Origin: Acetobacteraceae bacterium
GTDB lineage: Bacteria > Pseudomonadota > Alphaproteobacteria > Acetobacterales > Acetobacteraceae
Direction of reading: 5' to 3'
Assembly: GCA_036489395.1 (NCBI GenBank)
Contig: DASXFW010000086.1
Location: 9,333 to 73,332 of the forward strand
DNA length: 64,000 nt
Made by a program: the position numbers and the translations under genes. Positions 12,784 to 54,526 of this stretch are shown here, piece after piece. The notes under the pieces were generated by a model, which saw only the letters and a list, made by a program, of their open reading frames with translations, did no database searches and was not told the DNA's origin. Every line of letters begins with the position of its first letter. The stretch's first letter is position 1.

Positions 12784-12805
12784 GCGCGGCGCCGGTGGTA
12801 CCACT

Positions 12806-13229
12806 GTCATTGCGAGTTGGCCACCGGCCGGGGGCGGACCCGCGACTGGATGAAACGCTCGGCAGTACCTGTTGTGTCATGGCCGGGCTTGGCCCGGTCA
12901 CCCACGACTGTGCCCCGGCCGGCAAAGGAAAGACGTGGGTGGCCGGGACAAGCCCGGCCATGACATGGGTGGTTTCAGGTTAGGAGCGAAGCGACGAAGC
13001 AACCTCGGTCATGACGAGGGTTCCTCGGCTCCGCTTCGCTCCTGACAAGAAACTGGAGCCCCCCTGTCATTGCGAGGCCGCTTGGCCGAAGCAATCCCGT
13101 TCGCGACGAGCTGCAGGCAGCTCGTCACGATCGGGATTGCTTCGGCCAAGTGGCCTCGCAATGACAGAATGCCGCCGTTTCATCCAGGGCGGGTCGGCCG
13201 CCGCCGGCCGGTGGCCAATACGCAATGAT
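12806..13229. repeat. 425-bp repeat mosaic: RepB(fwd) - RepD - RepE half - RepA hairpin - RepB(rev)
   Basis: Components are RepB 12806-12857, RepD 12876-12965, RepE-like 12981-13056, RepA two-tier palindrome 13066-13165 and RepB reverse 13175-13229. The two RepB copies are inverted relative to each other and bracket the rest. Confidence 0.9.
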
Positions 13230-13290
13230 ACGTGCTTCGACGCTCGCGAAAGACCGCTCTAGGATCAGGCGACACTCGCGGGAGGCGCCA

Positions 13291-14538: not shown

Positions 14539-14588
14539 ACGCCCCGCCATTTTTGCGGAATACGAGAACTGAACGCCTCGTCATTTTT

Positions 14589-14860
14589 GTCATTGCGAGT
14601 TGCCCACCGGCCGTCGGGCCGACCCGCCCTGGATGAAACGGTCGCGGCCGGAGCGTAGGTCTCCCCTCCCCTTGAGGGAGGGGTGCGTACATCCACTGAC
14701 CGCGGATGTATGCACCCCTCCCCCAACCCCTCCCTCAAGGGGAGGGGGGGGACGTAGTTTCTTGTTAGGCCGTTTGGCCGAAGCAATCTCGTGCGTGACG
14801 AGCTGCCGGCGGCTCGTCACGCACGAGATTGCTTCGTCGCTTCGCTTCTCGCAATGACAG
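14589..14860. repeat. Repeat mosaic: RepB(fwd) - RepC - RepA/E hairpin
   Basis: Components are RepB 14589-14640, the linker ggtcgcggccggagcgtagg, RepC 14660-14753 (left arm shortened) and a RepA/E hairpin 14757-14860. Confidence 0.9.
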
Positions 14861-14965
14861 TGATTCGCTTCTCGCGATGCCAGTAAGGAGGGCTTGCGCA
14901 CGCGCGTCGCCTGATGTTCTCTGCCCGCATGGGCAAACAACGCCCGGCCTGCGGGAGGATAACGC

Positions 14966-39531: not shown

Positions 39532-41331
39532 CTATATCGCGATCCCCGCCGCCGCCAGCGCCCTCAGGAAATTCGGCTCCGGCGGCGGCAGCGGCGGCAG
39601 ATCCCAACTGCCGGTGCCGATCGGCCGGATCTCGCGATCCACCGGCACTTCCACCAGGTACGGCCGCCCCGACGCGATTGCCGCCTTCAGCGCGTCCTCC
39701 ACTTCGTCCGCGCGCGTGACCGTATGCGACGCGACGCCGAAGCTTTTCGCCAGCATGGCGAAGTCCGGGCTGTACAACGCGCCCGTGCGATCCGTATGGA
39801 ACCCGGTGACCAGCTCGCGTCCGCCGAACATGCCGTGCTGGATGTCGCGGATCGAGCAATACCCGTAGTTGTTCCACACCACCCACACCACCGGGATGTC
39901 GTATTCCGCCGCCGTCGCCAGCGCGTGCGGCGTCATCAGGAACGACCCGTCGCCGACCACCGCGACGCACGGCCGGTCCGGCGCCGCCAGCTTCGCGCCC
40001 AGGATGCCGGACGTGGCGAACCCCATCGCCGCGAACCCCCAGGAATGGATCAGGTGCCGCGGCCGCAGCGTGTCGAACAACTGGATGATCCAGTTGTGGT
40101 GCACGCCCACGTCGGACGCGATGATCGCGTTGTCGGGCAGGGCCCGCGACAGCGCGCGCATCAGCCGCTCCGGCCGCAGCGGCACCGCGTCGGACTCCGC
40201 CAGCCGGCCCTGATAATCGGCCCACACCGCGCGACCGCGCCGCAGCCGGTCCAGCCATGCGCCGCCCTCGCGCACACCGCCGCCCAGGCGAGATCGCGCC
40301 GTCGCCGTCAGCCACGCCAGGCTCGCCTTCGCGTCGCCAAGGATCGCGTGCTCTGCCGGATAGTTCCGCCCCAGTTCCGCCGGATCGATGTCGATCTGTA
40401 CCAGCCGCGACGGCGGGATCGACAGTGTGTAGCCGTCCAGCCAGGCGCTGGTGGCGCGGTCGTCGAACGAGAACCCCAGCGACAGGATCACGTCGGCGTG
40501 CTTCGTCGCGTCGTTGGCGGCGTAGCTGCCGTTGCGGCCGATCGCGCCGAACGCCAGAGGATGGCGGTCGCTGATCGCACCCTTGCCGTTCGGGCTGGTC
40601 ACCACGGGGATCGCCATCGTCTTGGCGAACGCGGCCAGTTCCGGCGCGGCTTCCGCCAGCAGCGCGCCCTGGCCGGCGATGATCACCGGGCGCTCCGCCG
40701 CCAGCAGCATATCCAGCGCCGCGGACAGCGCCTCCGGATCGCCCGGCGTGTGGTTCGCCGCCCGGCGGGACGCGACAGGCGGGGTCACCGCCGCCTCCTC
40801 CACGAATACGTTCAGCGGCACGTCGAGGTTCACCGGCCCGGGCCGCCCCGCCAGCATCAGGTCCCACGCCTGGCGCACTGCCAGCGGCACCATGTCGGTA
40901 CGCGTCGGCTGGAAACTGCGCTTCACATACGGGCGGATCACCGACGGGAAATCGCCCTGGAAATAGCGGCCCGTCTCCTGGAACGGCTGGCGGTTGAACT
41001 GGCTGGTCGGCACGTTGCCGGTGATGGCGAAGAATGCGCTGCTGTCCATCATCGCCGCCGCCAGCGCCACCACAAGGTTCGCCGAGCCGGGCCCGCAGGA
41101 CGTGAACGTCGCCACCGGCTCGTGCCGCACCTTGAAATACGCGTCCGCCATATGCCCGGCGGCTTGCTCGTGATGCACCGAGATGGTGCGGATGCGGTTC
41201 TGCGCCTTGAACGCCGCATCCAGGAAACCGACGTTGCCGTGCCCGCACAGCCCGAATAAGTAGGGCACGTTCTGCCGGATCAGGAAATCGACGATGATGT
41301 CGGCGCCGTTCATCTGGACGGTATCGGGCAT
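39532..41331 (-). CDS. Thiamine-diphosphate-dependent enzyme (acetolactate-synthase-like superfamily)
   Basis: This is the real gene inside ORF 39532..41574, starting at MPDTVQMNGADIIVDFLIRQNVPYLFGLCGHGNV... (41331). The ThDP-binding motif is VVGDGSFLMTPHALATAAEYDIPVVWVVWNN. Confidence 0.9.
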   Translation of the reverse strand: MPDTVQMNGADIIVDFLIRQNVPYLFGLCGHGNVGFLDAAFKAQNRIRTISVHHEQAAGHMADAYFKVRHEPVATFTSCGPGSANLVVALAAAMMDSSAFFAITGNVPTSQFNRQPFQETGRYFQGDFPSVIRPYVKRSFQPTRTDMVPLAVRQAWDLMLAGRPGPVNLDVPLNVFVEEAAVTPPVASRRAANHTPGDPEALSAALDMLLAAERPVIIAGQGALLAEAAPELAAFAKTMAIPVVTSPNGKGAISDRHPLAFGAIGRNGSYAANDATKHADVILSLGFSFDDRATSAWLDGYTLSIPPSRLVQIDIDPAELGRNYPAEHAILGDAKASLAWLTATARSRLGGGVREGGAWLDRLRRGRAVWADYQGRLAESDAVPLRPERLMRALSRALPDNAIIASDVGVHHNWIIQLFDTLRPRHLIHSWGFAAMGFATSGILGAKLAAPDRPCVAVVGDGSFLMTPHALATAAEYDIPVVWVVWNNYGYCSIRDIQHGMFGGRELVTGFHTDRTGALYSPDFAMLAKSFGVASHTVTRADEVEDALKAAIASGRPYLVEVPVDREIRPIGTGSWDLPPLPPPEPNFLRALAAAGIAI

Positions 41332-41395
41332 GGGCGGTGCCTTCTGCTGACGGTGGTTGGGCGGGCCTGCTTGTCTCACAGCCGGGGCCAGCCGC

Positions 41396-41446
41396 CCATC
41401 CCATCGAATTCCCCATCCCATCGAATTCCCCATCCCATCGAATTCC
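41396..41446. repeat. Perfect 3 x 17-bp tandem repeat (ccatcccatcgaattcc) in a divergent promoter region
   Basis: Copies lie at 41396-41412, 41413-41429 and 41430-41446 and are identical. Confidence 0.97.
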
Positions 41447-41477
41447 TTGAGCCGCTCCCCCACCCGCGGGCTATAAT
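41447..41477 (+). promoter_or_regulatory. Candidate sigma-70 promoter TTGAGC-N19-TATAAT facing the FkbH-like gene
   Basis: ttgagc lies at 41447-41452, directly abutting the third 17-mer. A perfect tataat lies at 41472-41477, which is rare in this GC background. The 19-nt spacer is longer than optimal. Confidence 0.4.
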
Positions 41478-41559
41478 CCACCCGGAAGCCGCGCCCCGCG
41501 CGCGTCCCAATCCCGGCCGCAAAACCCGGCCCGCACTCCGAGCCAGGGACCCGAACCCC

Positions 41560-43434
41560 GTGACCGAACTGCACTGGCTGCCCACTGTTCCCGACTGGCG
41601 TACCCGCCTGCGGGCCTTCGCCGCGGCCCCCGCCTGGGATGCGGCGGTGGCGCTTGCCAACGCCAACCTGAATTTCGTGCTGACCAACGCGCTGGACGAG
41701 ACCGTCCGCCGCGCCTTCCCCTCGCGTCCGGACAGCATAACCACCAAGCCGGTTCGCCTGGCGGTGCTGGGCTCCGCCACGCTAACCCACCTGCTGCCGG
41801 CGATCCGCGTCGCCGGCCTGCGCCGGAACATCTGGATCGACACCTACGAGAGCGATTTCGGCCAGTACTGGCAGGAGCTGTCGGACCCCGAATCCACCCT
41901 GCACGAATTCAAGCCGACCACGGTGCTGCTGTCGCTCGACGCCTACGACCTGACAGCCGGTGTGACGGCCGGCCTGGACGCGGCCGGCGCCAACGCCGCG
42001 TTGCAGGAGGTGACCGACCGCATCCGCGCCACCTGGCGTCAGGCCCGCGAGGCTTTCCACTGCCCCGTCATCCAGCAGGCCGCGCTGCCGGTACACCTGC
42101 CCGTTCTGGGCGGCAACGAACACCGGCTATCCGGTTCGCGCGCCGCCTTCATCACCCGGCTGAACCAGTCGCTGCGCGCGATGGCGGACGAGGACGGCGT
42201 CGATCTGCTGGCGCTGGACGAACGCGCCGCGCGCGACGGCATCGCCCGCTGGCACGATACCGCGCTGTGGCACCGTTCCAAGCAGGAGATCGCGCCCCCC
42301 GCCGCGCCGCTGTACGGCGATCTCGTCGGCCGGCTGCTCGCCGCCAAGCAGGGCCGCTCGTTCAAATGCCTGGTCATGGACCTGGACAACACGATGTGGG
42401 GCGGCGTGATCGGCGACGACGGCATGGAGGGCATCGTGCTCGGCCAGGGCAGCGCGCTGGGCGAAGCCTACGTCGCGTTCCAGGATTACGTGCGCGAGCA
42501 ATCGCGGCGCGGCGTGATCCTGGCGGTGTGTTCCAAGAACGACGAAGCGAACGCGCTGGAGCCATTCGAGAAGCACCCCGACATGGTGCTGAAGCGGCCC
42601 GACATCTCCAGCTTCGTCGCCAACTGGTCCGACAAGGCCGGCAACATCCGCGCCATCGCCGAGGAACTGAACATCGGCATCGATTCCCTTGTGTTCATCG
42701 ACGACAACCCATTCGAGCGTAACCTGGTGCGCCAGGAACTGCCGATGGTCGCGGTGCCGGAAGTGTCCGACGACCCGACCTATTATCCGCTGGCGATCGC
42801 CGACGCGGGATACTTCGAAGGCCTGTCCGTCACCGACGAAGACCGCGAGCGCACCGCGCAATACCAGGGCAACAAAGCACGCGACGCGTTGAAGGCGTCG
42901 GCCACCGATCTGGAAGGCTACCTGCGCGGGCTGGAAATGCAGCTCGTGTGGAAGCGCTTCGACCGCGTGGGTTTGCAGCGCATCGTCCAGCTCATCAACA
43001 AGTCGAACCAGTTCAACCTGACCACGCGACGCTATGCGGACGAGGACGTGCTGGCTGTCATGGCCGATCCGGATGCGTTCGGCCTGCAGCTTCGGCTGCT
43101 CGATCGCTTCGGCGATAACGGCGTGATCGCCATCGTCATCGGCCGGCTGCGCGACAACAGGGACCTCGACCTCGACACCTGGTTGATGAGTTGCCGCGTG
43201 CTCGGGCGGCAGGTGGAGCCGACCACACTGAACCTGGTCGCGCAGGAGGCGGCGAAGCTGGGCGCGCGGCGGCTGGTCGGGACCTATATTCCGACGAAGA
43301 AGAATGCGATGGTGAAGGACCACTACGCGAAGCTGGGATTCGCAGCGATGTCCGAGACGGGCGGCAACACCAACGTCCTCGATCTGGCGACGTTCGTGCC
43401 GGCGAAGACCTTCATCCACGTCACGGAGGGCTGA
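41560..43434 (+). CDS. FkbH-like protein (HAD-superfamily subfamily IIIC phosphatase domain plus C-terminal GNAT-like acyl-transfer domain)
   Basis: This is the real gene inside ORF 41353..43434; the GTG start at 41560 is tentative. HAD motifs: VMDLDNTMWGGVIGDD, AVCSKNDE, FIDDNPFERN. The C-terminal LMSCRVLGRQVE is typical of FkbH-family proteins. Confidence 0.85.
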   Translation: MTELHWLPTVPDWRTRLRAFAAAPAWDAAVALANANLNFVLTNALDETVRRAFPSRPDSITTKPVRLAVLGSATLTHLLPAIRVAGLRRNIWIDTYESDFGQYWQELSDPESTLHEFKPTTVLLSLDAYDLTAGVTAGLDAAGANAALQEVTDRIRATWRQAREAFHCPVIQQAALPVHLPVLGGNEHRLSGSRAAFITRLNQSLRAMADEDGVDLLALDERAARDGIARWHDTALWHRSKQEIAPPAAPLYGDLVGRLLAAKQGRSFKCLVMDLDNTMWGGVIGDDGMEGIVLGQGSALGEAYVAFQDYVREQSRRGVILAVCSKNDEANALEPFEKHPDMVLKRPDISSFVANWSDKAGNIRAIAEELNIGIDSLVFIDDNPFERNLVRQELPMVAVPEVSDDPTYYPLAIADAGYFEGLSVTDEDRERTAQYQGNKARDALKASATDLEGYLRGLEMQLVWKRFDRVGLQRIVQLINKSNQFNLTTRRYADEDVLAVMADPDAFGLQLRLLDRFGDNGVIAIVIGRLRDNRDLDLDTWLMSCRVLGRQVEPTTLNLVAQEAAKLGARRLVGTYIPTKKNAMVKDHYAKLGFAAMSETGGNTNVLDLATFVPAKTFIHVTEG

Positions 43435-43440
43435 ACGATT

Positions 43441-43683
43441 ATGCCGACGGAAGCCGAGATCTACGCTGGGTTGACCGAAATTTTCAACGATGTGTTCATG
43501 CGCGACGACATGGCGTTGACGCCGGCACTGGCGGCGAACGACGTGCAGGGCTGGGACTCGTTCAAGCAGATCGAGATCATCATGGCGTCCGAGGAGAAGT
43601 TCGGCATGAAATTCACCACCCGCGAGCTGGACAGTCTGCAGAACGTCGGCGATCTGGTGCGGGTGATCGCCGCGAAGGCGTAA
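43441..43683 (+). CDS. Acyl carrier protein
   Basis: 80 aa. GWDSFKQIEIIMASEEKF supplies the phosphopantetheine-Ser context (DS motif). It lies 6 nt after the FkbH-like stop. Confidence 0.85.
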   Translation: MPTEAEIYAGLTEIFNDVFMRDDMALTPALAANDVQGWDSFKQIEIIMASEEKFGMKFTTRELDSLQNVGDLVRVIAAKA

Positions 43684-43715
43684 CGGAATCCTCGCCCGCG
43701 CGACGGAAGCGGATT

Positions 43716-43997
43716 GTCATTGCGGGGGTTCCAAACGGACCGCCATTGCGGGGTGTCGCACCGATTGTCATTGCGAGGCCGTTTGGCCGAAGCAATCGCG
43801 TTGGAGATGAGCCGCCGCTTGTCACCAACGAGATTGCTTCGGCCAAGCGGCCTCGCAATGACGGAATGGTCCGGGCCATTTTCTTGTCAGGAGCGTAGCG
43901 GTCCCCGGACTTGACCCGGGGAAGCAACCTCGTGCGTGACAACCCCCATTGGCTCCTCACGAACGAGCTTGCTTCCTCGGCTCGCTCCTCGCCATGA
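43716..43997. repeat. RepA hairpin (43767-43862) flanked by partial RepA/RepE modules
   Basis: The RepA part is gtcattgcgaggccgtttggccgaagcaatcgcgttggagatgagccgccgcttgtcaccaacgagattgcttcggccaagcggcctcgcaatgac. There is an upstream stub gtcattgcggggg (43716) and a downstream ttcttgtcaggagcgtagcg...gctcgctcctcgccatgac. Confidence 0.9.
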
Positions 43998-44081
43998 CAC
44001 CTGTCGCATTCGCCACCCGATAATCGCTCTTTTGGCGACTTGCCTTACCACCCGCACGATCCCTGGTGTAGCGTCCGGCGC

Positions 44082-45347
44082 ATGTCCCAGGACCCCGAAC
44101 ACCCGCCCGCCGCCCCCCCGATCTTCGATCCGGCCGCCTTCCGCCTGACCGACGCGCAGGCGTCGTTGATCGCGCGCACCCAGCGCCTGGCGGCGGAAAA
44201 CTTCGGTCCGCGCGCTGCGCAGTACGATCGCGAAGCCCGCTTTCCCACCGAAAATTACCGCGACCTGCGTGACGCCGGCTTGCTTGCGATCTGCGTTCCG
44301 GCAGCGCACGGTGGCCTCGGTGCCAACTACCAGACGTACTCGCTGGCCGCGGCGGAGATCGCCCGCCATTGCGGCGCAACGGCACTGACCTGGAACATGC
44401 ACGTTTGCTCGACGCTCTGGTCCGGTCCGCTGGCCGACGACCTGACGATGGACGACGCCACCCGCGCCGATCACGACCGCCGCCGCGCGGTGCATTTCGC
44501 CCGCATCGTGCGCGCCGGTGCGATCTACGCGCAGCCCTTCTCCGAGGGTAACGCCGCCGCATCGGGCGCCGCGCCATTCGGGACGCTGGCGCGGCCGGTC
44601 GAAGGCGGCTGGCGCATCACCGGCCGCAAGGTGTTCGCATCTCTGTCGGGCAACGCCGATTACTACGGCACGCTGTGCACCGAGCCATCCGCCGACGGCT
44701 CGCTGTCCCGCCGCAACACGCTGTATCTCGCGGTGCCGGCCAACGCGCAGGGCGTGCGCGTGGAGGGCGAGTGGGATCCGCTGGGCATGCGCGGCACTGT
44801 GTCCCGCAACCTTATCCTCGACGACGTATTCGTGCCCGACGACGCGGCGCTGATGCCGCGCGGCATTTACGCACAGGCGGCAATCCGCTGGCCGCATATG
44901 TTCCTGACGCTGTCGCCGACCTATCTCGGCCTGGCGCAGGCCGCGTTCGATTTCACGGTGCGTTATCTGCGCGGCGAGGTTCCCGGTGCGCCGTCCGGCA
45001 AGCGCCGCGGCAGCGCCGTGAAGCAGCTTGTCGTCGCCGAGATGCGCATCAAACTGGAGCAAGCCAAGTCGCTGTGGTTCCAGGCAATCAGCGAGGCACA
45101 TGTCGATCCGTCGAAAGATCAGGTGCTGCGTGCCTATGCCGCACAGCACTGCGTCATGGAAACCGCGAACGACCTGGCACGCCTGGCGATCCGCACCTGC
45201 GGCGGCCATGCCATGTTGAAAAGCTTCCCACTGGAACGCATATACCGAGACAGCCGCTGCGGTTCGCTCATGCTGCCGTGGACCGCGGAAATCTGCCTGG
45301 AACGCATCGGCCGCGGCGCTTTGTACGAAGACGGCGAGACCGACTGA
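44082..45347 (+). CDS. Acyl-CoA/acyl-ACP dehydrogenase family protein (FkbI/ZmaE-like context)
   Basis: ORF 44040..45347 trimmed to MSQDPEHPP... at 44082. It has the ACAD fold pattern (…ENFGPRAAQYDREARFPTENYRDLRDAGLL…). The canonical C-terminal YEGT catalytic-Glu motif is replaced by LPWTAEI. Confidence 0.85.
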   Translation: MSQDPEHPPAAPPIFDPAAFRLTDAQASLIARTQRLAAENFGPRAAQYDREARFPTENYRDLRDAGLLAICVPAAHGGLGANYQTYSLAAAEIARHCGATALTWNMHVCSTLWSGPLADDLTMDDATRADHDRRRAVHFARIVRAGAIYAQPFSEGNAAASGAAPFGTLARPVEGGWRITGRKVFASLSGNADYYGTLCTEPSADGSLSRRNTLYLAVPANAQGVRVEGEWDPLGMRGTVSRNLILDDVFVPDDAALMPRGIYAQAAIRWPHMFLTLSPTYLGLAQAAFDFTVRYLRGEVPGAPSGKRRGSAVKQLVVAEMRIKLEQAKSLWFQAISEAHVDPSKDQVLRAYAAQHCVMETANDLARLAIRTCGGHAMLKSFPLERIYRDSRCGSLMLPWTAEICLERIGRGALYEDGETD

Positions 45348-46855
45348 TGAACCTCGCCGACCTGATCGACCGCAACGCCGCATTCACGCCCGGCAAGCCG
45401 GCGCTGCGTTTCGAAGGCGCCGTGTGGGACTATGCTTTTTTCGCATGCCGCATCGCCGCACTGGCGCGGGCGATGCAGTCGCAACTTGGCGTGCACCGCG
45501 GCGATCGCGTCGCCGTGCTGGCGTTGAACCGTCCGGATTATCTGGCGCTGCTGTACGCATGCGCGCGGCTCGGTGCGATGCTGGTGCCGTTGAACTGGCG
45601 GCTTGCGATCCCGGAGCAAGTGTTCATCCTGCGCGATGCCGGGGTGAAGGCGGTATTCGTCGCGGCCGATTTCGCCGCCGTCGCGCCGCTGCTGATGCAG
45701 GCCTTGCCGCAGACCCGCATCGTGCATCTGGATGATGCCGCCGGCTTCGAGGCGTTGCTGAACGCTGGCACCGGTGACGGCCGCGAACCGCACGTGGATT
45801 TCTCCGCGCCGCTGTTGATTGTTTATACGTCCGGCACCACCGGCCGACCGAAAGGCGCCGTACTAACCCAGCAGGCGGTATTCTCCAACGGCGTGATGAG
45901 CCACCACATGCACGCGATGACGGCGGACGATCATGTGCTGACCGTGCTGCCGTTTTTCCATGTCGGCGGCTTGAACATTCAGACGACGCCGGCGCTGCAG
46001 CTCGGCGCGACGGTTACCATCCACGCCCGTTTCGCGCCCGGCGACACGCTGGCGGCCATAGCGCATGACCGTCCGACGCTGACCGGGCTGGTGCCCGCGG
46101 CGGTCCAGGCGTTGCGGCAGCATCCGGCGTGGGAGACAACGGACCTCACCTGTCTGCGCGCGATGATGACGGGGTCGAGCATCGTGCCGCAGAAGCTGAT
46201 TGACGCCTTCACCGATCGTGGCGTGCCGGTGGTGCAGGTCTATGGCGCGACCGAGACCTGTCCGATCGCAATCTACACGCGCCTTGGCGGCGATTTGACG
46301 CGGCCAGGCTCGACCGGCCTGCCCGGCCTGCTGTGCGAAGCGCGCATCGTCGATGCAGCCGGCAACGACGTGGCGGCGAACGTTCCGGGCGAGATTCTCA
46401 TTCGCGGCGAGAACGTTCTGGTGGAGTACTGGGGCAACGCGGCCGCAACAGCCGATGGGTTGCGCGACGGTTGGTACTGGACCGGCGACATCGCCAAACG
46501 CGATGCCGATGGCTATGTCACGGTGCTGGAGCGCAAGCGCAACGTGATCATATCTGGCGGCGAGAATGTCTATCCGGCGGAGATCGAACGCGTGCTGCAC
46601 GACCATCCCGCGGTCGCGGAAGCAGCGGCGATCGGCGTGCCCGATCCGCGCTGGCAGGAGGTCCCGCTCGCCTTCGTCGTGCTGCGCGAAAACGCGACGC
46701 AAGGGGCCGCTGAACTGCGCGCCCATGTCGCCGCGCAACTGGCCCGCTTCAAGCTGCCGCGGGAGATCGTTATCGTACCCGACCTGCCGCGCAACGCGCT
46801 CGGCAAGGTGCAGCATTTCCGGCTGCGGGAGATGTGGGGAGAGGAGCGCGGATGA
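45347..46855 (+). CDS. AMP-dependent synthetase/ligase (acyl-CoA or acyl-ACP ligase) 1
   Basis: This is the real gene inside ORF 44675..46855. The ATG overlaps the upstream TGA (TGATG). It has the A3 motif IVYTSGTTGRPKGAVL and the A10 region ...LPRNALGKV. Confidence 0.9.
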   Translation: MNLADLIDRNAAFTPGKPALRFEGAVWDYAFFACRIAALARAMQSQLGVHRGDRVAVLALNRPDYLALLYACARLGAMLVPLNWRLAIPEQVFILRDAGVKAVFVAADFAAVAPLLMQALPQTRIVHLDDAAGFEALLNAGTGDGREPHVDFSAPLLIVYTSGTTGRPKGAVLTQQAVFSNGVMSHHMHAMTADDHVLTVLPFFHVGGLNIQTTPALQLGATVTIHARFAPGDTLAAIAHDRPTLTGLVPAAVQALRQHPAWETTDLTCLRAMMTGSSIVPQKLIDAFTDRGVPVVQVYGATETCPIAIYTRLGGDLTRPGSTGLPGLLCEARIVDAAGNDVAANVPGEILIRGENVLVEYWGNAAATADGLRDGWYWTGDIAKRDADGYVTVLERKRNVIISGGENVYPAEIERVLHDHPAVAEAAAIGVPDPRWQEVPLAFVVLRENATQGAAELRAHVAAQLARFKLPREIVIVPDLPRNALGKVQHFRLREMWGEERG

Positions 46856-46908
46856 TCCGGTATCCAGGTAATGGCGCGGCGTATGGCGCAGCCACCCACC
46901 TCACCCCC

Positions 46909-46986
46909 GTCATGGCCGGCCCTGAGCCGGCCATCTACCCCGCGGACCGTCCGTGCGAAGATGACCGGGTCAAGCCCGGCCATGAC
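46909..46986. repeat. RepD elements between the two ligase genes
   Basis: The elements are gtcatggccggccctgagccggccat (46909-46934) and gatgaccgggtcaagcccggccatgac (46960-46986). Confidence 0.8.
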
Positions 46987-47024
46987 GGGTTAGTCGTTGC
47001 CATGACGCAAGAGCATTCCCGCCC

Positions 47025-48524
47025 ATGACCGACTGGACCAACCTCGGCGACGCCATCGACCGCGATAGCGACCCCGCCACGCCGGCGGTCATCGACCTCG
47101 GCCACGAAACTCCGCCGCGCATCTACACCTACGGCGAGCTCGACTCCCTCGCGAACGCCGTCGCGCGCGGCTTGCTGCGCCGCGGCCTGAACGCCGGCGA
47201 CCGCGTCGCCATCATCGCCGCAAACCGCGCCGAGTACCTCGCGAGCTTCCTCGGCACCATGCGCGCCGGCCTCGTCTCCGTGCCGGTGAATTTCAAGCTT
47301 CCGCCCATCCTGGTGCAGCACATCCTGCGCGACTCCGACACGCGCTTCGTCCTGTGCGACGCGGCGCGCGCGTCCCTGTGCCCGCCCGATCTTCCGCACG
47401 CGACCTTTGGCCACGACAGCTTCGCCGCATTGCTCGATTCCGGCGAATTCGCAGCCGTGCGGCCGGAACCAACGGCGCCGGGCATGTTCCTCTACACCTC
47501 CGGTTCAACCGGCCGGCCAAAAGGCGTGGTCCTGTCGCACGAATCCCATCTCTGGGTGCTGCGCGTCCGCCGGCGCATCGGCGTCCCGCAGCGCACGTTG
47601 GTCGCCGCGCCGCTGTATCACATGAACGCGCTCGCGGTCTGCCAGGTCGCGCTGGTGCAACGCGACACCATCGTGCTGCTGCCAAACTTCACAGCACCCA
47701 GCTATATCCGTGCGATCGGCGAACACCGCGCCACGATGCTGACCTCGGTCCCGCCGATGATCGCCATGATGCTGCGCGAGGAAGAATTGCTCCGCCGCAC
47801 CAACCTTTCGTCCGTCACGTCGGTGCGCATGGGTTCCGCGCCGGTGTCCGCCGCGCTGATGGATGCGATCCGCGCGATGTTTCCCAACGCCTCCATCACC
47901 AACGGCTACGGCACCACGGAATCCGGCCCGATCGCCTTCGCGCCTCACCCCGACGGCCGCGAGACGCCACCCTTGTCCGTCGGCGTGCCGCACCTGGCCG
48001 TGCAGCTTCGCCTCGTCGCCGACGACGATAACAATGCGACGGAAGGTATCCTGGACATCAAGTGCGGCGCGCTGATGAACGGTTATCACAAACTCCCGGA
48101 GGCCACGGCGAAGGTGATGACCGAAGACGGCTTCTACATCACCGGCGACGTATTCCGCCGCGACGAACACGGCTTCCATTTCTTCGTCGGCCGCACCGAC
48201 GACATGTTCGTCAGCGGCGGCGAGAACATCTATCCGGGCGAAGTCGAAAAGATCCTCGAGACCCACCCCCTCATCCGTCAGGCCGCCGTCATTCCTGTTC
48301 CCGACGACATCAAGGGCCACAAGCCCGTCGCCTTCGTCGTTGCCGCGGAACGCCTGACCGAGGACGACGTGAAACGCCACGCCCTGGCCAACGCCGCCGC
48401 CTACCAGCACCCCCGCCGCGTCTGGTTCCTGGACGAATTGCCGCTCGCCGGCACCAACAAGGTCGATCGCCGCGCGTTGTTAGAGCACGCGATGAATGCG
48501 CTCGGCACCGAGGAGACAAGATGA
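47025..48524 (+). CDS. AMP-dependent synthetase/ligase 2
   Basis: 499 aa with the A3 motif [15 protein letters not shown], the A8-like motif [21 protein letters not shown] and the C-terminal [11 protein letters not shown]. Confidence 0.9.
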
Positions 48525-49534
48525 GAGCCCTGGTCCTGCGCGCGCACGGCGCGATCGACACGCTGCGCGTCGAACCCGACTTCCCCGATCCGATCCCCGG
48601 CGACGGTGACGTCCTGCTGCGCGTCCGCGCATGTTCCTTTAACTACCACGACGTTTTCACCGTGCGCGGCATGCCCGGCATCAAAATCCCCATGCCCGGC
48701 ATCCCCGGCCTGGACCTGGCGGGCGAGATCGTCGCCCTCGGCACGGGTGTAACCGGCTGGCAGGTTGGCGACCGCGTCGTCGTCGATCCCATTAACCGGG
48801 TAGAGGGTGGATTGATGGGCGAGACCATCCACGGCGGTATGGCCGAGCTCTGCCGCGTGCGCGCCCACCAGCTTGTGCGCCTGCCCGACGCGGTCAGCTT
48901 CGTGGAGGCTGCGGCGCTCCCCTGCGCCTATGGCACCGCGCATCGCATGATGGTCACCAACGGCAGCGTCGCCGCGGGCGAAAAAGTGCTGATCCTGGGC
49001 GCATCCGGTGGCGTCGGCGTGTGCTGCGTGCAGCTTGCGAAACTCGCCGGCGCCACGGTGATCGCGTGCGCGGGCAGCGAGGCAAAGGCGCGGCGGCTGC
49101 GCGACCTCGGCGCCGATCACACGATAAACTACGTCGAAAAGGACTTCGTGCAGGAGGTCTATGCCCTCTACGGCAAGCCGGTCCGCCGCGGCGCGGGCAC
49201 CGATCGCGGCATGGACGTGGTCGTGAACTACACCGGCGGCGACACCTGGACCAAATCGCTGCGCGTGCTGCGCGTCGGCGGACGGTTGCTGACGTGTGGC
49301 GCCACCGCGGGCTACGACCCCAAGGAGGACATCCGCTTCATCTGGACGTTCGAGCTGAAAATCCTCGGCGCCAACGGCTGGGCGCGAGCGGATGTCGAAC
49401 GCCTGTTGCAGCTTGTCGCGGAACGAAAATTGAAGGCGCTGGTTGATGAAACCTTCCCGTTGGACCGCGCGCCCGAGGCACTTGCGCGCCTGGAAAACCG
49501 CAACGTGTTCGGCAAGCTCGTGGTGACGCCATGA
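48521..49534 (+). CDS. Zinc-type alcohol dehydrogenase / quinone-oxidoreductase-like MDR protein
   Basis: This is the real gene inside ORF 48062..49534. The start [10 protein letters not shown]... at 48521 overlaps the upstream stop (ATGA). It has a GroES-like N-terminal domain and the Rossmann motif [17 protein letters not shown]. Confidence 0.9.
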
Positions 49535-49953
49535 GCGACCTGCCGCTGTCCAAGGAGCGACTGCAGCGCATGCTGGCGGGATCGCCGGCGATCGACGCGA
49601 TGGGTCTGGAAGTGGTGTCCACCGATCCCGCGGCGGAAACCGTCGTGATGCGCGCGGCGATGCGGCCGGAGTTCGAACGCATGCGTGGCTCCGGCCAATG
49701 GCACGGCGGCCCGATCGCCGCGATCATCGACACGGTTGGCGACTATGCGCTGGTCATGGTGCTGGGCCGGCCGCTGCCGACCATCAACATGCGGGTGGAT
49801 TATCTGCGGCCGGCGATCAACACCGCGCTGATCGTCACCGGGCGCGTTCGCCGCAACGGCCGCAGTGTCGGCGTGGTGGATATCGACGTGGCGAACGAAG
49901 CCGGCGCGATGGTGGCGATCGGCCGTGCGGCCTATGCGACCGCGACCGGGTGA
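49531..49953 (+). CDS. PaaI/hotdog-fold thioesterase
   Basis: 140 aa with ...GQWHGGPIAAIIDTVGDYALV...GRVRRNGRSVGVVDIDV.... It overlaps the MDR gene by 4 nt. Confidence 0.85.
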   Translation: MSDLPLSKERLQRMLAGSPAIDAMGLEVVSTDPAAETVVMRAAMRPEFERMRGSGQWHGGPIAAIIDTVGDYALVMVLGRPLPTINMRVDYLRPAINTALIVTGRVRRNGRSVGVVDIDVANEAGAMVAIGRAAYATATG

Positions 49954-50000
49954 ACCGGTCGCGACCTGATTCGAAGGGCCGTAGCGACCCGCATCCAACT

Positions 50001-50284
50001 GTCATTGCGAGTTGGCCACACTCCGGCGGCGGCCGACCCACCCTGGATGAAACTGAAGCCCCCTGTCATTGCGAGGCCGCTCGGCCGAAGCAATCTCGTT
50101 CGTGATGAGCTGCGGGCGGCTCGTCACGAACGGGATTGCTTCGGCCGAGCGGCCTCGCAATGACAGGGGGCTTCAGTTTCTTGTTAGCGCAGCGAAGCAA
50201 TCCCCCGCCGGCGATCGCACGATGCCCGCGGGAGATTGCTTCGCTGCGCTCGCAATGACAGTGGGGCTGCGCTCGCAATGACAG
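50001..50284. repeat. RepB forward (50001-50052) plus RepA two-tier palindrome (50065-50164) plus RepE-like hairpin (50173-50259) plus a stub
   Basis: Read directly from the sequence. The module order is the same as at 30911-31093. Confidence 0.9.
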
Positions 50285-50410
50285 TGGAGCGGTCGCGTCG
50301 GCCCGACACCCGCGCAGCAGTGGAGGCCCTGCGCCGCCACCTGAAACCGAGGTTGCCGAAAACCTACCGATCGGTATCATCGCCACCGAACCCCAGGCGC
50401 GAGGCGCGGC

Positions 50411-51523
50411 ATGAACTTCGATTTCTCTGACGACAGCAAGCTGCTGCGCGAGCAAGCGCAGCGCTTCCTGCGGGAGAATTGTCCGCCCAAGGCGGTGCGT
50501 GCGGTGCTGGAGGGGAAGGCGCCGCATGACGCCGCGTTGTGGCGCGGCATGGCGGAGATGGGCTGGCTCGGCGCGGCAATCCCCGAAGCGTATGACGGCG
50601 CCGGCCTCGGCTACGAGGCATTGTGCGTGCTGGCGGAAGAACTCGGCCGCGCGCTGGCGCCGGTGCCGTTTACATCCAGCGTCTGCCTCGCCGCCGAAGC
50701 GATCCTCGCCGCCGGCAGCGAGTCGCAGAAACGCGAGTACCTGCCGAAGCTCGCGCGGGGTGAACTGATTGCGACATTCGCCCTGGCGGAGGGCGCGGGC
50801 GATCCGCGCGAGGCCAGCGTGCACACGCGGCTGGCCGACGGCCGTATCAGCGGCACGAAATGGCCGGTGCCGGATGGCACGATCGCGCAGCTTGCCGTGG
50901 TGGCCGCACGCGATGCGTCCGGCGTATCGCTGGCGCTGGTCGATCTGACCGCACTCGGCATAACGCGCACCGCGCTGGCAAGCGTCGATCCCAGCCGAGA
51001 CCAGGCGAAAATCGATTTCGTCAACGCGCCCGCGGTGCTGCTGGGCGAAGCGGGCCAGGGCTGGAACACCGTGCGCCGCGTGCTGGATCGTGCGGCCATC
51101 GTGACCGCGTTCGAGCAGGTAGGCGGCGCGACGGCGGCACTGGAGATGGCGACGGCGTATGCGAAGGAACGGTTCGCGTTCGGTCGCCCGATCGGTTCAT
51201 TCCAGGCGATCAAGCACAAGCTGGCGGACGTGTACGTCGCGACCGAGCTCGCGCGTTCCAACGCCTATTACGGCGTCTGGGCGCTGTCGGCGGATGCGGC
51301 GGAACTGCCGCTGGCAGCCGCAACCGCGCGCGTGTCGGCGTCCGACGCATTCTTCCAGGCGACGAAGGAGAATATCCAGGTGCATGGCGGCGTTGGCTAC
51401 ACCTGGGACTACGACTGTCACTTGTACTATCGTCGCGCCAAGCTGCTGGCGCTGGCTTTGGGCAGCCAGCGGCATTGGAAGAATCGCGTGGTCGCCGAAC
51501 TCGAAACCCGCAACGCCGCCTGA
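50411..51523 (+). CDS. Acyl-CoA dehydrogenase family protein, degenerate (probable non-catalytic partner subunit)
   Basis: 370 aa with the ACAD fold. The FAD/substrate motif is degenerate (FALAEGAGDP in place of SEPxxGSD). There is no Glu at either known catalytic-base position (VLDRAAI; ALALGSQRH). Confidence 0.85.
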   Translation: MNFDFSDDSKLLREQAQRFLRENCPPKAVRAVLEGKAPHDAALWRGMAEMGWLGAAIPEAYDGAGLGYEALCVLAEELGRALAPVPFTSSVCLAAEAILAAGSESQKREYLPKLARGELIATFALAEGAGDPREASVHTRLADGRISGTKWPVPDGTIAQLAVVAARDASGVSLALVDLTALGITRTALASVDPSRDQAKIDFVNAPAVLLGEAGQGWNTVRRVLDRAAIVTAFEQVGGATAALEMATAYAKERFAFGRPIGSFQAIKHKLADVYVATELARSNAYYGVWALSADAAELPLAAATARVSASDAFFQATKENIQVHGGVGYTWDYDCHLYYRRAKLLALALGSQRHWKNRVVAELETRNAA

Positions 51524-51543
51524 CGCGCAGGGAGCACGACACG

Positions 51544-52776
51544 ATGGACTTCGACGATACCCCGGAAGAAGCCGCGTTCCGCACCGAGGCGCGCGCATTC
51601 CTGGAAGCGAACGCCACCCGCAAGACTCGCCGTTCCGCCGCGCATCGCTACGGCGATACCGACGCGGCCGAGGTCGCCCGCGCCAGGTCCTGGCAGGTGC
51701 GGAAAGCGGATGCCGGTTTCGCCGGCATCACCTGGCAGAAGGAATGGGGTGGCCGCGGCGGCACGCCGATGCAGCAGATCATCTGGCAGCAGGAGGAGGC
51801 AAACTACGAGACCCCGCCGAACATCTTCCTGATCGGGCTGGGCATGTGCATCCCCACCATGATCGCCTACGCGAAGCCCGACCAGTTGCAGCGCTATGTG
51901 AAGCCGGCGCTGCGCGGGGATGAGATCTGGTGCCAATTGTTTTCCGAACCCTCCGGCGGTTCCGATGTCGGCGGGCTGCGCACGCGGGCAGAGAAGCGCG
52001 GCGACGAGTGGGTGATCAACGGACAGAAGATCTGGACCTCCGGCGCGCATTATTCCGATTACGGCCTGCTGCTGACGCGCAGCGATCCGAACATCCAGAA
52101 ACACGCCGGCCTGACCGCGTTCTTCATCGACATGAAATCGCGCGGTATTGAGGTGCGGCCAATCCACCAGATGTCGGGCGCATCGAACTTCAACGAGGTG
52201 TTCTTCACCGATCTGCGCGTGCCGGATGCGCAGCGGCTCGGCGCGCCGGGCGCCGGCTGGAAGGTGGCGATCACCACGCTGATGAACGAGCGTCTCGCCG
52301 CCAGCGAAAATCGCCGCCCCGACATGCAGGACCTGATCGAGCTGGCACGCTCGCTCGAGATCGACGGCCGTCCCGCGATCGCCGACCCGGCAGTGCGCGA
52401 GCGCATCGCCGAATGGCATGCGCAAACGGCGGGCCTGACCTACACGCGGTTCCGCGTGCTTACCGCGCTGTCGCGCGGGCAGACTCCCGGGCCGGAGAAC
52501 TCGATCTTCAAGCTGGTCAATGCCAGTAAGCAGCAGGCGGTTGCCTCCTTCGGCATGGACCTGCTGGGCATGGCGGGTGGCGTGATGGATCCCGACCTCG
52601 CGCCAGTGCAGGCGATGTTCCAGGATTCGCTGCTATCGGCGCCGGGCATGCGCATCGCCGGTGGCACCGACGAGATCCTGCGCAATATCATCGCCGAACG
52701 CGTGCTTGGACTGCCCGGCGATATGCGCGCTGACAAGGACCTGCCTTTCAACCAATTGCCAAGTGGGAGTCGATAG
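51544..52776 (+). CDS. Acyl-CoA dehydrogenase family protein (catalytic subunit candidate, IVD/LCAD-type base)
   Basis: This is the real gene inside ORF 50860..52776, starting at MDFDDTPEEAAF... (51544). It has the canonical LFSEPSGGSD. Glu in TLMNERLA aligns with the IVD-type base, while the C-terminal motif is IAGGTDEI (the MCAD-type Glu is replaced by Gly). Confidence 0.9.
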   Translation: MDFDDTPEEAAFRTEARAFLEANATRKTRRSAAHRYGDTDAAEVARARSWQVRKADAGFAGITWQKEWGGRGGTPMQQIIWQQEEANYETPPNIFLIGLGMCIPTMIAYAKPDQLQRYVKPALRGDEIWCQLFSEPSGGSDVGGLRTRAEKRGDEWVINGQKIWTSGAHYSDYGLLLTRSDPNIQKHAGLTAFFIDMKSRGIEVRPIHQMSGASNFNEVFFTDLRVPDAQRLGAPGAGWKVAITTLMNERLAASENRRPDMQDLIELARSLEIDGRPAIADPAVRERIAEWHAQTAGLTYTRFRVLTALSRGQTPGPENSIFKLVNASKQQAVASFGMDLLGMAGGVMDPDLAPVQAMFQDSLLSAPGMRIAGGTDEILRNIIAERVLGLPGDMRADKDLPFNQLPSGSR

Positions 52777-52786
52777 GATGCACCCT

Positions 52787-52887
52787 GTCATTGCGAGGAG
52801 CGAAGCGACGAAGCAACCTCGGTCGTGTCGAGGCACTGTGCGACTACACGAACGGGATTGCTTCGTCGCGTCGCTCCTCGCAATGAC
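52787..52887. repeat. RepE two-tier palindrome inside an apparent operon
   Basis: The sequence is gtcattgcgaggagcgaagcgacgaagcaacctcggtcgtg...cacgaacgggattgcttcgtcgcgtcgctcctcgcaatgac. It lies 11 nt after the ACAD stop and 21 nt before the thiolase ATG, whose GGGGAGGAG SD follows the repeat. Confidence 0.95.
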
Positions 52888-52907
52888 CGAGGGGAGGAGC
52901 GGCCGCC

Positions 52908-54092
52908 ATGACTGAACGCACGCTGCGGGGAAAAACCGCCATCGTCGGCATTGGCGAGACCACCTATTATCGCCACGGCCAGGCACCCGACGCCGAATTC
53001 ACGCTCGCGCTGCAAGCGGTCGTCGCCGCGTGCAAGGACGCCGGCATCAGCCCGCATGACATCGACGGCTTCGCTTCCTACGGCAACGACCGCAGCGAGG
53101 CCGGCCGTCTCGCCGCCGCGCTCGGCGTTAAGGAGCTGCGCTTCTCTAACATGTTCTGGGGCGGCGGCGGCGGCGGAGTCTGCGGCGCGGTCGGCAACGC
53201 CGCCGCAGCCGTGGCGACCGGCATGGCGGACTGCGTCGTCGCGTTTCGCTCGCTGGCGCAAGGCCAGTTCGCGCGCTATGGCCGCGGCACCGGCGCACCC
53301 CTCGCTGCCGGTGACGACCAATTTCTGTTCCCCTACGGTATCATGTCCCCAGCACAGCGTTTCGCCATGAAGGTGACGCGCTTCATGCACGACCACGGCA
53401 TTCGCCAGGAAGCGCTGCGCGCGATCTCGCTCGCCTGCTACCACCACGCGCAGAACAATCCCAACGCCGTGATGCGTGGCCGGCCGCTGACGGAACAAAA
53501 ATACGACGACTCGCGCTGGATCATCGAACCGTTCTTCCATCTCTACGATTGCTGTCAGGAAAACGACGGTGCCGCCGCGGTTATCGTCGTCCCCGCCGAC
53601 CGTGCCCGCGACTTTCCGCACAAACCCTCCTACCTGCTGTCATGCGCGCAAGGCTGCGACCATCGCAGTGCCGCGCCCGTGCACAACATGCCGAACTACC
53701 CGAGCTCGCATTTCGGCCAGATCGGGCCTCGGCTTTACGACATGGCAAAGCTGTCACCGTCCGACATCGGCATCGTGCAGTGCTATGAGAACTTCACCGG
53801 CGGCGTGCTGATGAGCCTGGTAGAACACGGCCTGGTGCGGCCGGAGGAAGCCAACGAAGTGCTGGTAAAGGACAACCTGATCGTGCCGAACGGAGGCATG
53901 CCGCTGAACACCAGCGGCGGCAACCTGGCCGAATGCTACATGCACGGCCTGGAGCTGGTGAACGAATCCGTGCGGCAGATCCGCGGCACCGCGATCAACC
54001 AGGTGAAGCGCAATGACACCGCGATCGTCATCGGCGGCCCGATGGTCACACCGGTCAGTTCCATCATCCTCGGATCGGAGGCGGCACTATGA
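52908..54092 (+). CDS. SCPx/Ltp-type thiolase-like protein (non-specific lipid-transfer/thiolase family)
   Basis: 394 aa with ...TAIVGIGETTYYRHG... and the C-terminal NTSGGNLAECYMHGLELVNESVRQIRG, typical of Ltp/SCP2-thiolases. It is followed by a DUF35 gene. Confidence 0.9.
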   Translation: MTERTLRGKTAIVGIGETTYYRHGQAPDAEFTLALQAVVAACKDAGISPHDIDGFASYGNDRSEAGRLAAALGVKELRFSNMFWGGGGGGVCGAVGNAAAAVATGMADCVVAFRSLAQGQFARYGRGTGAPLAAGDDQFLFPYGIMSPAQRFAMKVTRFMHDHGIRQEALRAISLACYHHAQNNPNAVMRGRPLTEQKYDDSRWIIEPFFHLYDCCQENDGAAAVIVVPADRARDFPHKPSYLLSCAQGCDHRSAAPVHNMPNYPSSHFGQIGPRLYDMAKLSPSDIGIVQCYENFTGGVLMSLVEHGLVRPEEANEVLVKDNLIVPNGGMPLNTSGGNLAECYMHGLELVNESVRQIRGTAINQVKRNDTAIVIGGPMVTPVSSIILGSEAAL

Positions 54093-54526
54093 GCGACTTC
54101 TATCTTCCGGAGGGCCTGCCGGCGCCGAACACGTCGGACATGCTGTCCGCGCCGTATTGGGAAGCGACGCGAGCCGGACGGTTGCGCATCCAGAAGTGCC
54201 GCGGCTGCGGCGCGTGGCAGTGGGGACCGGAGTGGGTTTGTCACCGGTGCCATTCGTTTGATCTGACCTGGGAAGACATCGAAGGGCGTGGGCGCATCTA
54301 CAGTTATCAGCGTCCGCATCATCCGGTGCATGCGGCGCTGAACGGGCACGGCCGCTACATCGTTGTTCTCGTCGAGCTCCCCGAATACGGCAACGTGCGC
54401 ATGGTCGGCAATCTGCTCGGCGACCCGCGGCAGGACGTGCAGATTGGCGCGGCAGTCGAGGCGGTGTTCGAGCCCCACGCCGACTTCACGCTGGTGCAGT
54501 GGCGGCCGATCACCACCCGCGCTTGA
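54089..54526 (+). CDS. DUF35 Zn-ribbon / OB-fold protein (thiolase partner)
   Basis: 145 aa with a four-Cys ribbon (CRGCGAWQWGPEWVCHRCHS) and an OB-fold tail. It overlaps the thiolase gene by 4 nt. Confidence 0.85.
   Translation: MSDFYLPEGLPAPNTSDMLSAPYWEATRAGRLRIQKCRGCGAWQWGPEWVCHRCHSFDLTWEDIEGRGRIYSYQRPHHPVHAALNGHGRYIVVLVELPEYGNVRMVGNLLGDPRQDVQIGAAVEAVFEPHADFTLVQWRPITTRA

Follow-up and report, generated by a model that had tools for sequence, protein, structure and literature searches.

FkbH enzymes convert 1,3-bisphosphoglycerate into a glyceryl thioester, which is then passed to a dedicated acyl carrier protein (ACP) (PMC7489565, PMC3679948). Described examples of an FkbH enzyme with a discrete ACP include Mad7/Mad8 and Mad14/Mad12 of the tetromadurin pathway, and BafAIV/BafAII of the bafilomycin pathway (PMC7489565, PMC3679948). 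Thus far, the FkbH enzymes that have been characterised all belong to polyketide or non-ribosomal peptide pathways, hence the interest of a free loader/carrier pair. This report addresses one such pair, found in a stretch of 64,000 nucleotides (nt) from a bacterium of the Acetobacteraceae (the window), where an FkbH gene and an ACP gene open an 8.4-kb series of genes at 41560-49953. A small carrier protein also serves the Dlt pathway (DltA, DltC, DltB, DltX, and DltD), which performs the D-alanylation of teichoic acids. MBOAT/SGNH pathways other than Dlt are said to lack a carrier protein, and a C-terminal acyl-shuttle hexapeptide has been described for MBOAT/SGNH systems (PMC12148441). Our search of the literature on FkbH with MBOAT, polysaccharide or HAD-IIIC yielded polyketide synthase (PKS) and non-ribosomal peptide synthetase (NRPS) contexts only. 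Likewise, no description of cassettes combining FkbH, ACP, MBOAT, and SGNH proteins was found in the open-access and preprint literature.

A first-pass annotation, made from the letters of the DNA alone, had presented the genes at 41560-49953 as one free-standing pathway, in which a small C3-derived acid tethered to the ACP would be ligated or released. Comparison with related loci leads to a different view. Taken jointly with the explanation of the pair that we favour below, it is probable that three independently inherited modules make up the 8.4-kb stretch as a mosaic, and that they stand side by side only in this genome. What appears to be an orphan biosynthetic cluster would then be a chance juxtaposition of modules, and what is still of interest is the FkbH-ACP pair, a conserved and mobile unit of two genes whose link in cis to an MBOAT gene has been lost. 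The genes, with lengths in amino acids (aa) for the pair, are as follows:

41560-43434, plus strand: FkbH-type loader (module 1a), 624 aa; TIGR01686 at 300 bits, HAD-IIIC and FkbH_N domains.
43441-43683, plus strand: ACP (module 1b), 80 aa; PF00550 PP-binding domain, attachment serine in GWDSF.
43684-44081, no strand: intergenic gap of 398 nt, coinciding with a synteny breakpoint and holding a REP-type palindrome.
44082-45347, plus strand: ACAD1 (module 2a), of the acyl-CoA dehydrogenase (ACAD) family; Pfam ACAD N, M, and C domains.
45347-46855, plus strand: Lig1 (module 2b), acyl-CoA ligase; PF00501 and PF13193; TGATG coupling to ACAD1.
47025-48524, plus strand: Lig2 (module 3a), second acyl-CoA ligase; AMP-binding.
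48521-49534, plus strand: MDR (module 3b), zinc-free, of the quinone-oxidoreductase/enoyl-thioester-reductase type; ATGA overlap with Lig2.
49531-49953, plus strand: PaaI-type hotdog thioesterase (module 3c); ATGA overlap with MDR.

The genome carrying the window (6.5 Mb in 409 contigs, 93% complete) belongs to the Acetobacteraceae, with Rhodopila and Acidisphaera as its closest named relatives, and the window lies on contig C224. Genes were called by GC3 frame analysis and open reading frame listing, and families were assigned by Pfam and NCBIfam. For the synteny comparison, FkbH relatives were taken from 80 loci at 53-85% identity, and each of the sixteen proteins encoded at 35-60 kb was searched for in these loci; a second set of 18 loci from different Acetobacteraceae genera brought the total to 98. 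Only FkbH and ACP recur in the 80 loci, the ACP adjoining FkbH in 75 of them, and the 18 further loci agree. Among the 80 loci, no orthologue of ACAD1, Lig1, Lig2, MDR, PaaI, the downstream ACAD pair, or either of the two thiamine diphosphate (ThDP) enzymes was linked to FkbH. The sole exception for the region is one locus (L019), where orthologues of thiolase (83% identity) and DUF35 (75%) follow the ACP at a distance of about 3 kb. All-against-all clustering of the neighbours in the 80 and the 18 loci revealed no third conserved gene beside the FkbH-ACP pair. Candidates from this clustering were rejected: the neighbours which do recur (an AI-2E transporter, DUF1194, a Hint-domain protein, an MFS transporter, an M24 peptidase, and PhyH) represent local synteny in Rhodopila-like genomes.

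The remaining genes keep company of their own. About 22 of 150 genomes of the family have an ACAD1 orthologue (64-75% identity), and Lig1 is the gene directly after ACAD1 in all 18 loci that were fetched, where FkbH, ACP, Lig2, MDR, and PaaI are absent. The Lig2 orthologues (54-66% identity) have MDR and PaaI beside them at each of 11 loci, where the three genes occur in one of two orders and without the other modules. Where a genome has both of these modules, they are distant from each other, lying at 0.31 Mb and 3.74 Mb of the same replicon in genome G125, and on separate contigs in G090, G048, G050, and G018. Within the genus itself, an FkbH orthologue (83-85% identity) is present in seven of eight genomes, and orthologues of ACAD1 and Lig2 were not found in the six same-genus genomes tested. 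The three synteny breakpoints are the three long intergenic gaps, at 43684-44081, 46856-47024, and 49954-50410. Synteny, the differing phyletic patterns, and the position of the breakpoints at the gaps therefore point to three modules rather than one pathway.

The first-pass annotation had treated FkbH, ACP, and ACAD as an established trio; ACAD1 accompanies FkbH-ACP in 0 of 98 loci, and is paired with Lig1 in 18 of 18. Conserved synteny shows every gene except the FkbH-ACP pair to be an unrelated neighbour, which undoes the proposal of one free-standing pathway, and the oxidation, ligation, reduction, and release of an ACP-bound C3 acid by the products of those neighbours find no comparative support. 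For genome mining, this means that an FkbH with an ACP and a nearby ACAD should not be scored as a hydroxymalonyl-ACP cassette before synteny has been checked. As a side observation, a protein of about 350 aa without a Pfam or NCBIfam match lies upstream of the ACAD1 orthologues (L127-L144) in 14 of 18 cases, and a divergent MarR regulator in 6 of 18; neither of them adjoins ACAD1 in the window.

The FkbH-ACP pair itself is genuine, with its catalytic motifs intact, as the first reading had it. FkbH matches TIGR01686 at 300.2 bits, against a cut-off of 146.65, and contains three domains: an SGNH-like FkbH_N domain, a HAD-IIIC phosphatase domain, and a C-domain of GNAT fold with Cys545 in SCRVLGR. 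The motifs quoted earlier (DLDNTMWGG, SKND, DDNPFE, and SCRVLGR) are all present and nearly invariant in 66 relatives; the HAD residues D274-L-D-N-T278, S325-K-N, K359, and D381-D382 vary little or not at all, and Cys545 is kept in 65 of the 66 sequences. The only solved relative, PDB 3SLR (the N-terminal and phosphatase domains of Bacteroides fragilis BF1531), matches residues 55-423 with an E-value of 3e-67. An AlphaFold model of FkbH (pLDDT 87) is aligned by Foldseek to 3SLR with a TM of 0.90. The last 170 residues or so of the model form a GNAT fold and return GNAT matches, with SCRVLGR at the end of a β-strand in this C-domain, a position which we take to be the pantetheine pyrophosphate site of GNAT enzymes. 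On the side of the carrier, GWDSF is found in 45 of 52 clustered ACPs. FkbH-ACP identity is about 77-85% in most close relatives, every flank varies, and one metagenomic relative (P0002) is 94% identical. Cultured relatives with the orthologue include Rhodopila globiformis DSM 161 (L039) and Acidisphaera sp. S103 (L020). By its hidden Markov model match, HAD motifs, cysteine, and adjacent ACP, the pair is, on sequence grounds, a member of the FkbH/ACP glyceryl-loading family, and FkbH probably loads a glyceryl unit on its ACP. In some relatives, a glyoxalase/VOC-family protein of roughly 150 aa (c41) was observed between FkbH and ACP (L069 at 11907-12365, and L075) or just after the ACP (L061); it may modify the ACP-bound acyl group.

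The descent of the pair can be followed through its more distant relatives. At 53-62% identity (Acidobacteriota, Hyphomicrobium, Gammaproteobacteria, and other Acetobacteraceae), MBOAT is the gene after the ACP. With duplicates removed, an MBOAT lies within 4 kb at 18 of 28 FkbH loci at 53-62% identity, versus 1 of 78 at identities of at least 62%. An even sample of 300 alphaproteobacterial species contained the FkbH domain in 27, with MBOAT within 4 kb at 12-13 of 28 loci. The maximum-likelihood tree places the window FkbH in a 35-member clade (SH-aLRT 83), 34 members of which have no MBOAT nearby. MBOAT-linked members account for 13/14 and 3/4 of the sister clades, and for 6/7 and 2/2 of the deeper clades. 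As both the sister and the deeper clades are MBOAT-linked, the stand-alone state of FkbH is taken to be derived. The stand-alone clade is widespread in the Acetobacteraceae and abundant in metagenome-derived sequences, and it shows that FkbH-ACP can part from MBOAT and persist without one.

The genome carrying the window holds three FkbH paralogues and four MBOATs (on contigs C352, C49, C130, and C137), and no MBOAT is adjacent to the window pair on C224. One complete cassette is located on the minus strand of C137 (12195-17192; L095), comprising an ACP, an FkbH paralogue 42% identical to that of the window, a 381-aa membrane-anchored GDSL/AlgX-like (SGNH-like) protein, and an MBOAT; this paralogue falls in one of the deeper MBOAT-linked clades. 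The third paralogue (39% identity; C50:35200-40353, L096) adjoins a MaoC-dehydratase/SDR fusion and a beta-keto acid cleavage enzyme, and no ACP homologue was detected near it.

On C352 (3429-6060; L210), an orphan MBOAT ending in the acyl-shuttle hexapeptide FLYYRF is followed downstream by a 369-aa membrane-anchored GDS-motif protein, which carries an LLLGDSRA block and has no Pfam or NCBIfam match. This MBOAT is 48-60% identical to FkbH-linked MBOATs, and about 42% identical to the other two orphan MBOATs of the genome. Homologues of its GDS-motif partner (32-50% identity) lie inside FkbH-ACP-MBOAT loci, and both C352 proteins are orthologous to the acceptor half of such loci in other genomes. 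Additionally, in the only locus of the stand-alone clade with a nearby MBOAT (L028), this MBOAT and a protein homologous to the GDS-motif partner are encoded just upstream of FkbH, on the opposite strand. Two more orphan pairs of an MBOAT and a partner are found on C49 and C130. In terms of what MBOAT-fed acylation would entail, a loader inside the MBOAT-linked FkbH phylogeny and a matching MBOAT-SGNH pair in the genome were both found, and adjacency and constant co-occurrence were not.

The mechanism which we favour runs as follows. The HAD domain would take 1,3-bisphosphoglycerate, by homology to characterised FkbH enzymes, and the glyceryl group would pass via the conserved cysteine of the GNAT-fold C-domain to the phosphopantetheine of the ACP, yielding glyceryl-S-ACP. 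The acyl-ACP would then be used by an acyltransferase encoded elsewhere, the most likely consumer in this genome being the C352 pair of MBOAT and membrane-anchored GDS-motif (SGNH-like) protein. In this view a Dlt-like machine for esterifying a polymer of the cell envelope would be split in two, the window pair forming its donor half in the cytoplasm and the C352 pair the consumer, a proposal that we hold tentatively and rate at a little under an even chance. Natural glycerate esters exist, for example on gellan (PMC7009714), and knowing the acceptor would reveal the route by which bacteria attach esters of the glycerate type to molecules of the envelope.

The co-occurrence of the two halves speaks for this account, with a reservation. 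Among the 150 family genomes, FkbH of this clade is found in 19 of the 24 with a C352-type MBOAT, compared with 41 of 150 overall, and about 11-12 of 26 stand-alone-FkbH genomes carry a C352-type MBOAT unlinked, but these counts come from related, non-independent genomes and are suggestive rather than a statistical test. Other observations weigh against the account. Seven family genomes keep an FkbH orthologue (62-70% identity) without any PF03062 match, one of them being closed at 3.8 Mb; in the five of these that were examined further, one FabF-type ketosynthase (KS) was found and condensation domains were absent. A genome of the same genus has a C352-type MBOAT reduced to a pseudogene (three TGA and one TAA), and an intact FkbH. 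The nature of the acyl group presumed to be loaded by this clade rests on homology. As for the mosaic, co-directional and tightly packed genes could in principle be recruited together in this one strain. With FkbH present and MBOAT absent in seven genomes, the MBOAT is therefore not the only or an obligatory consumer; and since the five checked genomes are also without PKS and NRPS, the consumer there must be none of the three.

The same genomes lend weight to an alternative, in which FkbH-ACP feeds an acceptor system that is neither PKS/NRPS nor MBOAT, for instance a cytoplasmic acyltransferase by which a sugar-nucleotide amine, a lipid, or some other metabolite would receive a glyceroyl or lactyl group, with the C352 MBOAT at most an optional second consumer. 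The MBOAT pseudogene in a genome with an intact FkbH fits such an acceptor, as does the strong conservation of the pair despite its varying flanks. Furthermore, a 1,550-aa GT2+GT9 glycosyltransferase gene lies directly after the stand-alone ACP, on the same strand, in two Acetobacteraceae genera (L174 at 11323-15981, and L175), which hints at a glycan acceptor. However, the clade descends from MBOAT-linked FkbH genes and is strongly enriched in genomes with the matching MBOAT type, and the flanks, which differ in almost every genus, yielded no candidate acceptor. We therefore regard this alternative as rather unlikely, and it is to the same degree doubtful that the stand-alone clade delivers a glycolysis-derived C3 acyl group to a kind of acceptor not yet linked to FkbH chemistry. 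If true, glyceryl-ACP would have a role in envelope or primary metabolism that has not been described before.

It is very improbable that the 8.4 kb encode a single pathway after all, with FkbH-ACP making glyceryl-ACP, ACAD1 and MDR modifying it, and the ligases and the thioesterase ligating or releasing a small C3-derived acid. The layout would suit such a pathway, as all genes are on one strand within 8.4 kb, coupling is found inside ACAD1-Lig1 and inside Lig2-MDR-PaaI, and no competing PKS/NRPS exists in the genome. On the other hand, the three blocks are never together in the 98, 18, and 11 related loci, their phyletic distributions differ, and ACAD1-Lig1 loci elsewhere hold no ACP. The ACP is followed by the 398-nt gap with its REP-type palindrome, and Lig1 and Lig2 are separated by 169 nt with an inverted repeat. 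The enzymes themselves also fit poorly, the MDR being of the enoyl-reductase type rather than a hydroxyacyl dehydrogenase, and both ligases resembling CoA ligases in their sequences.

The gene content behind these statements was largely as first reported. All genes listed in the first-pass annotation are present with the families it gave, and the junction sequences bear out the spacing of 6 nt from the stop of FkbH to the start of ACP, the TGATG at 45345-45349 (ACAD1/Lig1), and the ATGA at 48521-48524 (Lig2/MDR) and 49531-49534 (MDR/PaaI). A 3-hydroxyacyl-CoA dehydrogenase of the FkbK/ZmaG type had been called absent, and indeed none is found among the Pfam/NCBIfam-annotated cassette genes. 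The ACAD said to follow the ACP does exist, but 398 nt with a palindrome of 46-nt arms separate the two. The MDR, taken earlier for a zinc-type dehydrogenase, has GLD in place of the GHE zinc motif, and is matched best by the models for PIG3, crotonyl-CoA reductase, and acryloyl-CoA reductase; it is therefore assigned to the enoyl-thioester/quinone reductase type and not to the zinc alcohol dehydrogenases. In the PDB, Lig1 matches fatty-acyl- and feruloyl-CoA synthetases best, and ACAD1 an "acyl-CoA dehydrogenase type 2 domain protein". ACAD1 was also considered as an FkbI-type enzyme, which was rejected, FkbI (PDB 1R2J) not being named among the 50 PDB matches listed.

Modules 2 and 3 would be ordinary CoA-thioester modules, each activating a free acid with CoA. 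Module 2 (ACAD1-Lig1) would then dehydrogenate the acyl-CoA, and module 3 (Lig2-MDR-PaaI) would reduce and hydrolyse it; both presumably belong to the accessory genes of this strain and have nothing to do with the ACP. After PaaI, at 50411-54526 of the window, there follow an ACAD pair, an SCPx-type thiolase, and a DUF35/ChsH2-like OB-fold protein, which look like a separate side-chain beta-oxidation-type module.

The first-pass annotation had also noted that no PKS/NRPS lies in the window and had allowed for one just outside. The 9 kb of contig flank on each side of the window contain no PKS, NRPS or MBOAT, and encode TPR/GT9-like, Ig/LysM, CDP-alcohol phosphatidyltransferase, ValRS, and PEP-CTERM proteins. 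Across the whole genome, the PF00109 search found ketosynthases of the fatty acid synthase type only, on C119 and C254 and none on C224, and the PF00668 search found zero condensation domains in the assembled genome. The observation thus extends to the rest of the contig and to the 93%-complete genome, the orphan status of FkbH-ACP therefore holds genome-wide, and the pair is likewise orphaned from PKS/NRPS in the relatives checked. No FabH-like enzyme, acyltransferase or dehydratase was seen beside FkbH-ACP among the annotated neighbours, nor as a third gene in the 98 loci, the KSIII Pfam models not having been searched genome-wide. Largely refuted, and barely credible, is the supply of a hydroxymalonyl-/methoxymalonyl-ACP or tetronate glyceryl unit to a PKS/NRPS in the unassembled 7% or so of the genome: a genome in 409 contigs at 93% completeness leaves some room for it and the FkbH family is best known from such pathways (PMC7489565, PMC3679948), but the assembled genome has no modular KS or condensation domain, in five complete or near-complete orthologue genomes the KS is of the FabF type only and condensation domains are absent, and the pair has no conserved neighbour of the FabH-like, 3-hydroxyacyl-CoA dehydrogenase or O-methyltransferase kind.

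The non-coding sequence around the pair contains two features upstream of FkbH:

41396-41477, plus strand: FkbH upstream region, with three perfect 17-bp direct repeats at 41396, 41413, and 41430.
41513-41550, plus strand: 5' leader of FkbH-ACP, with the hairpin CCGGCCGCAAAACCCGGCC, then GAGCCAGGGAC.

The upstream sequences of 10 orthologous loci were compared by eye. Same-genus orthologues (L011-L017, L062) carry the leader as the hairpin CCGGCCGCAAnnnCCGGCC, then GCGCCAGGAAC, 20-60 nt before the FkbH start, and judging from this comparison the leader at 41513-41550 travels with the FkbH-ACP module. Further upstream, the same-genus orthologues share GTTTTTGTTGAA...GTGTTA, and the window has instead the 17-bp repeats and TTGAGC-N19-TATAAT; the more distant L015, L020, and L039 have a similar upstream box only. 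The TTGAGC (41447) and TATAAT (41472) upstream of the window FkbH are separated by a spacer of 19 nt, owing to which the pair was not called by a default sigma-70 scan, and the promoter/terminator scan gave a site count no higher than in shuffled sequence. An Rfam scan of 41200-50500 returned only sub-threshold miRNA-like matches, which lie on palindromes, and no match for the leader.

The palindrome in the gap between ACP and ACAD1 has 46-nt arms at 43767-43812 and 43817-43862. It belongs to a REP/MITE-like family with the core GTCATTGCGAG, which has 1,182 core copies in the genome versus about 3 expected by chance. REP-type palindromes occupy many intergenic gaps, being found in the window at 43767-43862, 50001-50272, and 52787-52887, and in 12 other places. 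Their use as proof of operon borders was considered and rejected, as a copy of the repeat (52787-52887) also separates ACADb from the thiolase gene, which are tightly linked, and as the genome contains the core about 1,180 times.

In comparison with the tetronate and methoxymalonate systems, the window pair is alike in its TIGR01686 domain, HAD motifs, conserved cysteine, adjacent small ACP, and the expected conversion of 1,3-bisphosphoglycerate to glyceryl-S-ACP. At about 620 aa, the window FkbH presumably resembles the tetronate-type enzymes in length. Unlike those systems, the pair is without a PKS/NRPS, a co-inherited flavin adenine dinucleotide (FAD) dehydrogenase, and a 3-hydroxyacyl-CoA dehydrogenase, and it is a free two-gene unit in unrelated chromosomal contexts. 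It is not part of the hydroxymalonyl/methoxymalonyl-ACP pathway (FkbG-K, ZmaD/E/G/N, BafAI-AV), whose gene set is not inherited with it and for which there is no consuming PKS/NRPS, and it is not part of a tetronate glycerate-utilisation operon.

With the Dlt pathway, the proposed machine would have its layout in common: a loader in the cytoplasm, a small carrier protein, and an MBOAT together with an SGNH protein. The MBOATs of the genome carry a C-terminal F-x-Y-x-x-F acyl-shuttle motif and match the DltB model at 172-183 bits, which is below the cut-off of that model. The differences from Dlt lie in the loader, an FkbH phosphatase/transferase taking the place of the adenylating ligase; in the acyl group, which is probably glyceryl rather than D-alanyl; and in the host, which is a Gram-negative alphaproteobacterium. 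In addition, the MBOAT/SGNH half is missing from the window and would lie, if anywhere, on another contig. A common descent links the pair to the FkbH-ACP-MBOAT-SGNH cassettes, among which the window FkbH is nested on the tree, and of which the same genome has a complete copy on C137; the window copy differs in belonging to a derived clade that has lost the MBOAT linkage (1 of 78 loci) and that persists in MBOAT-less genomes.

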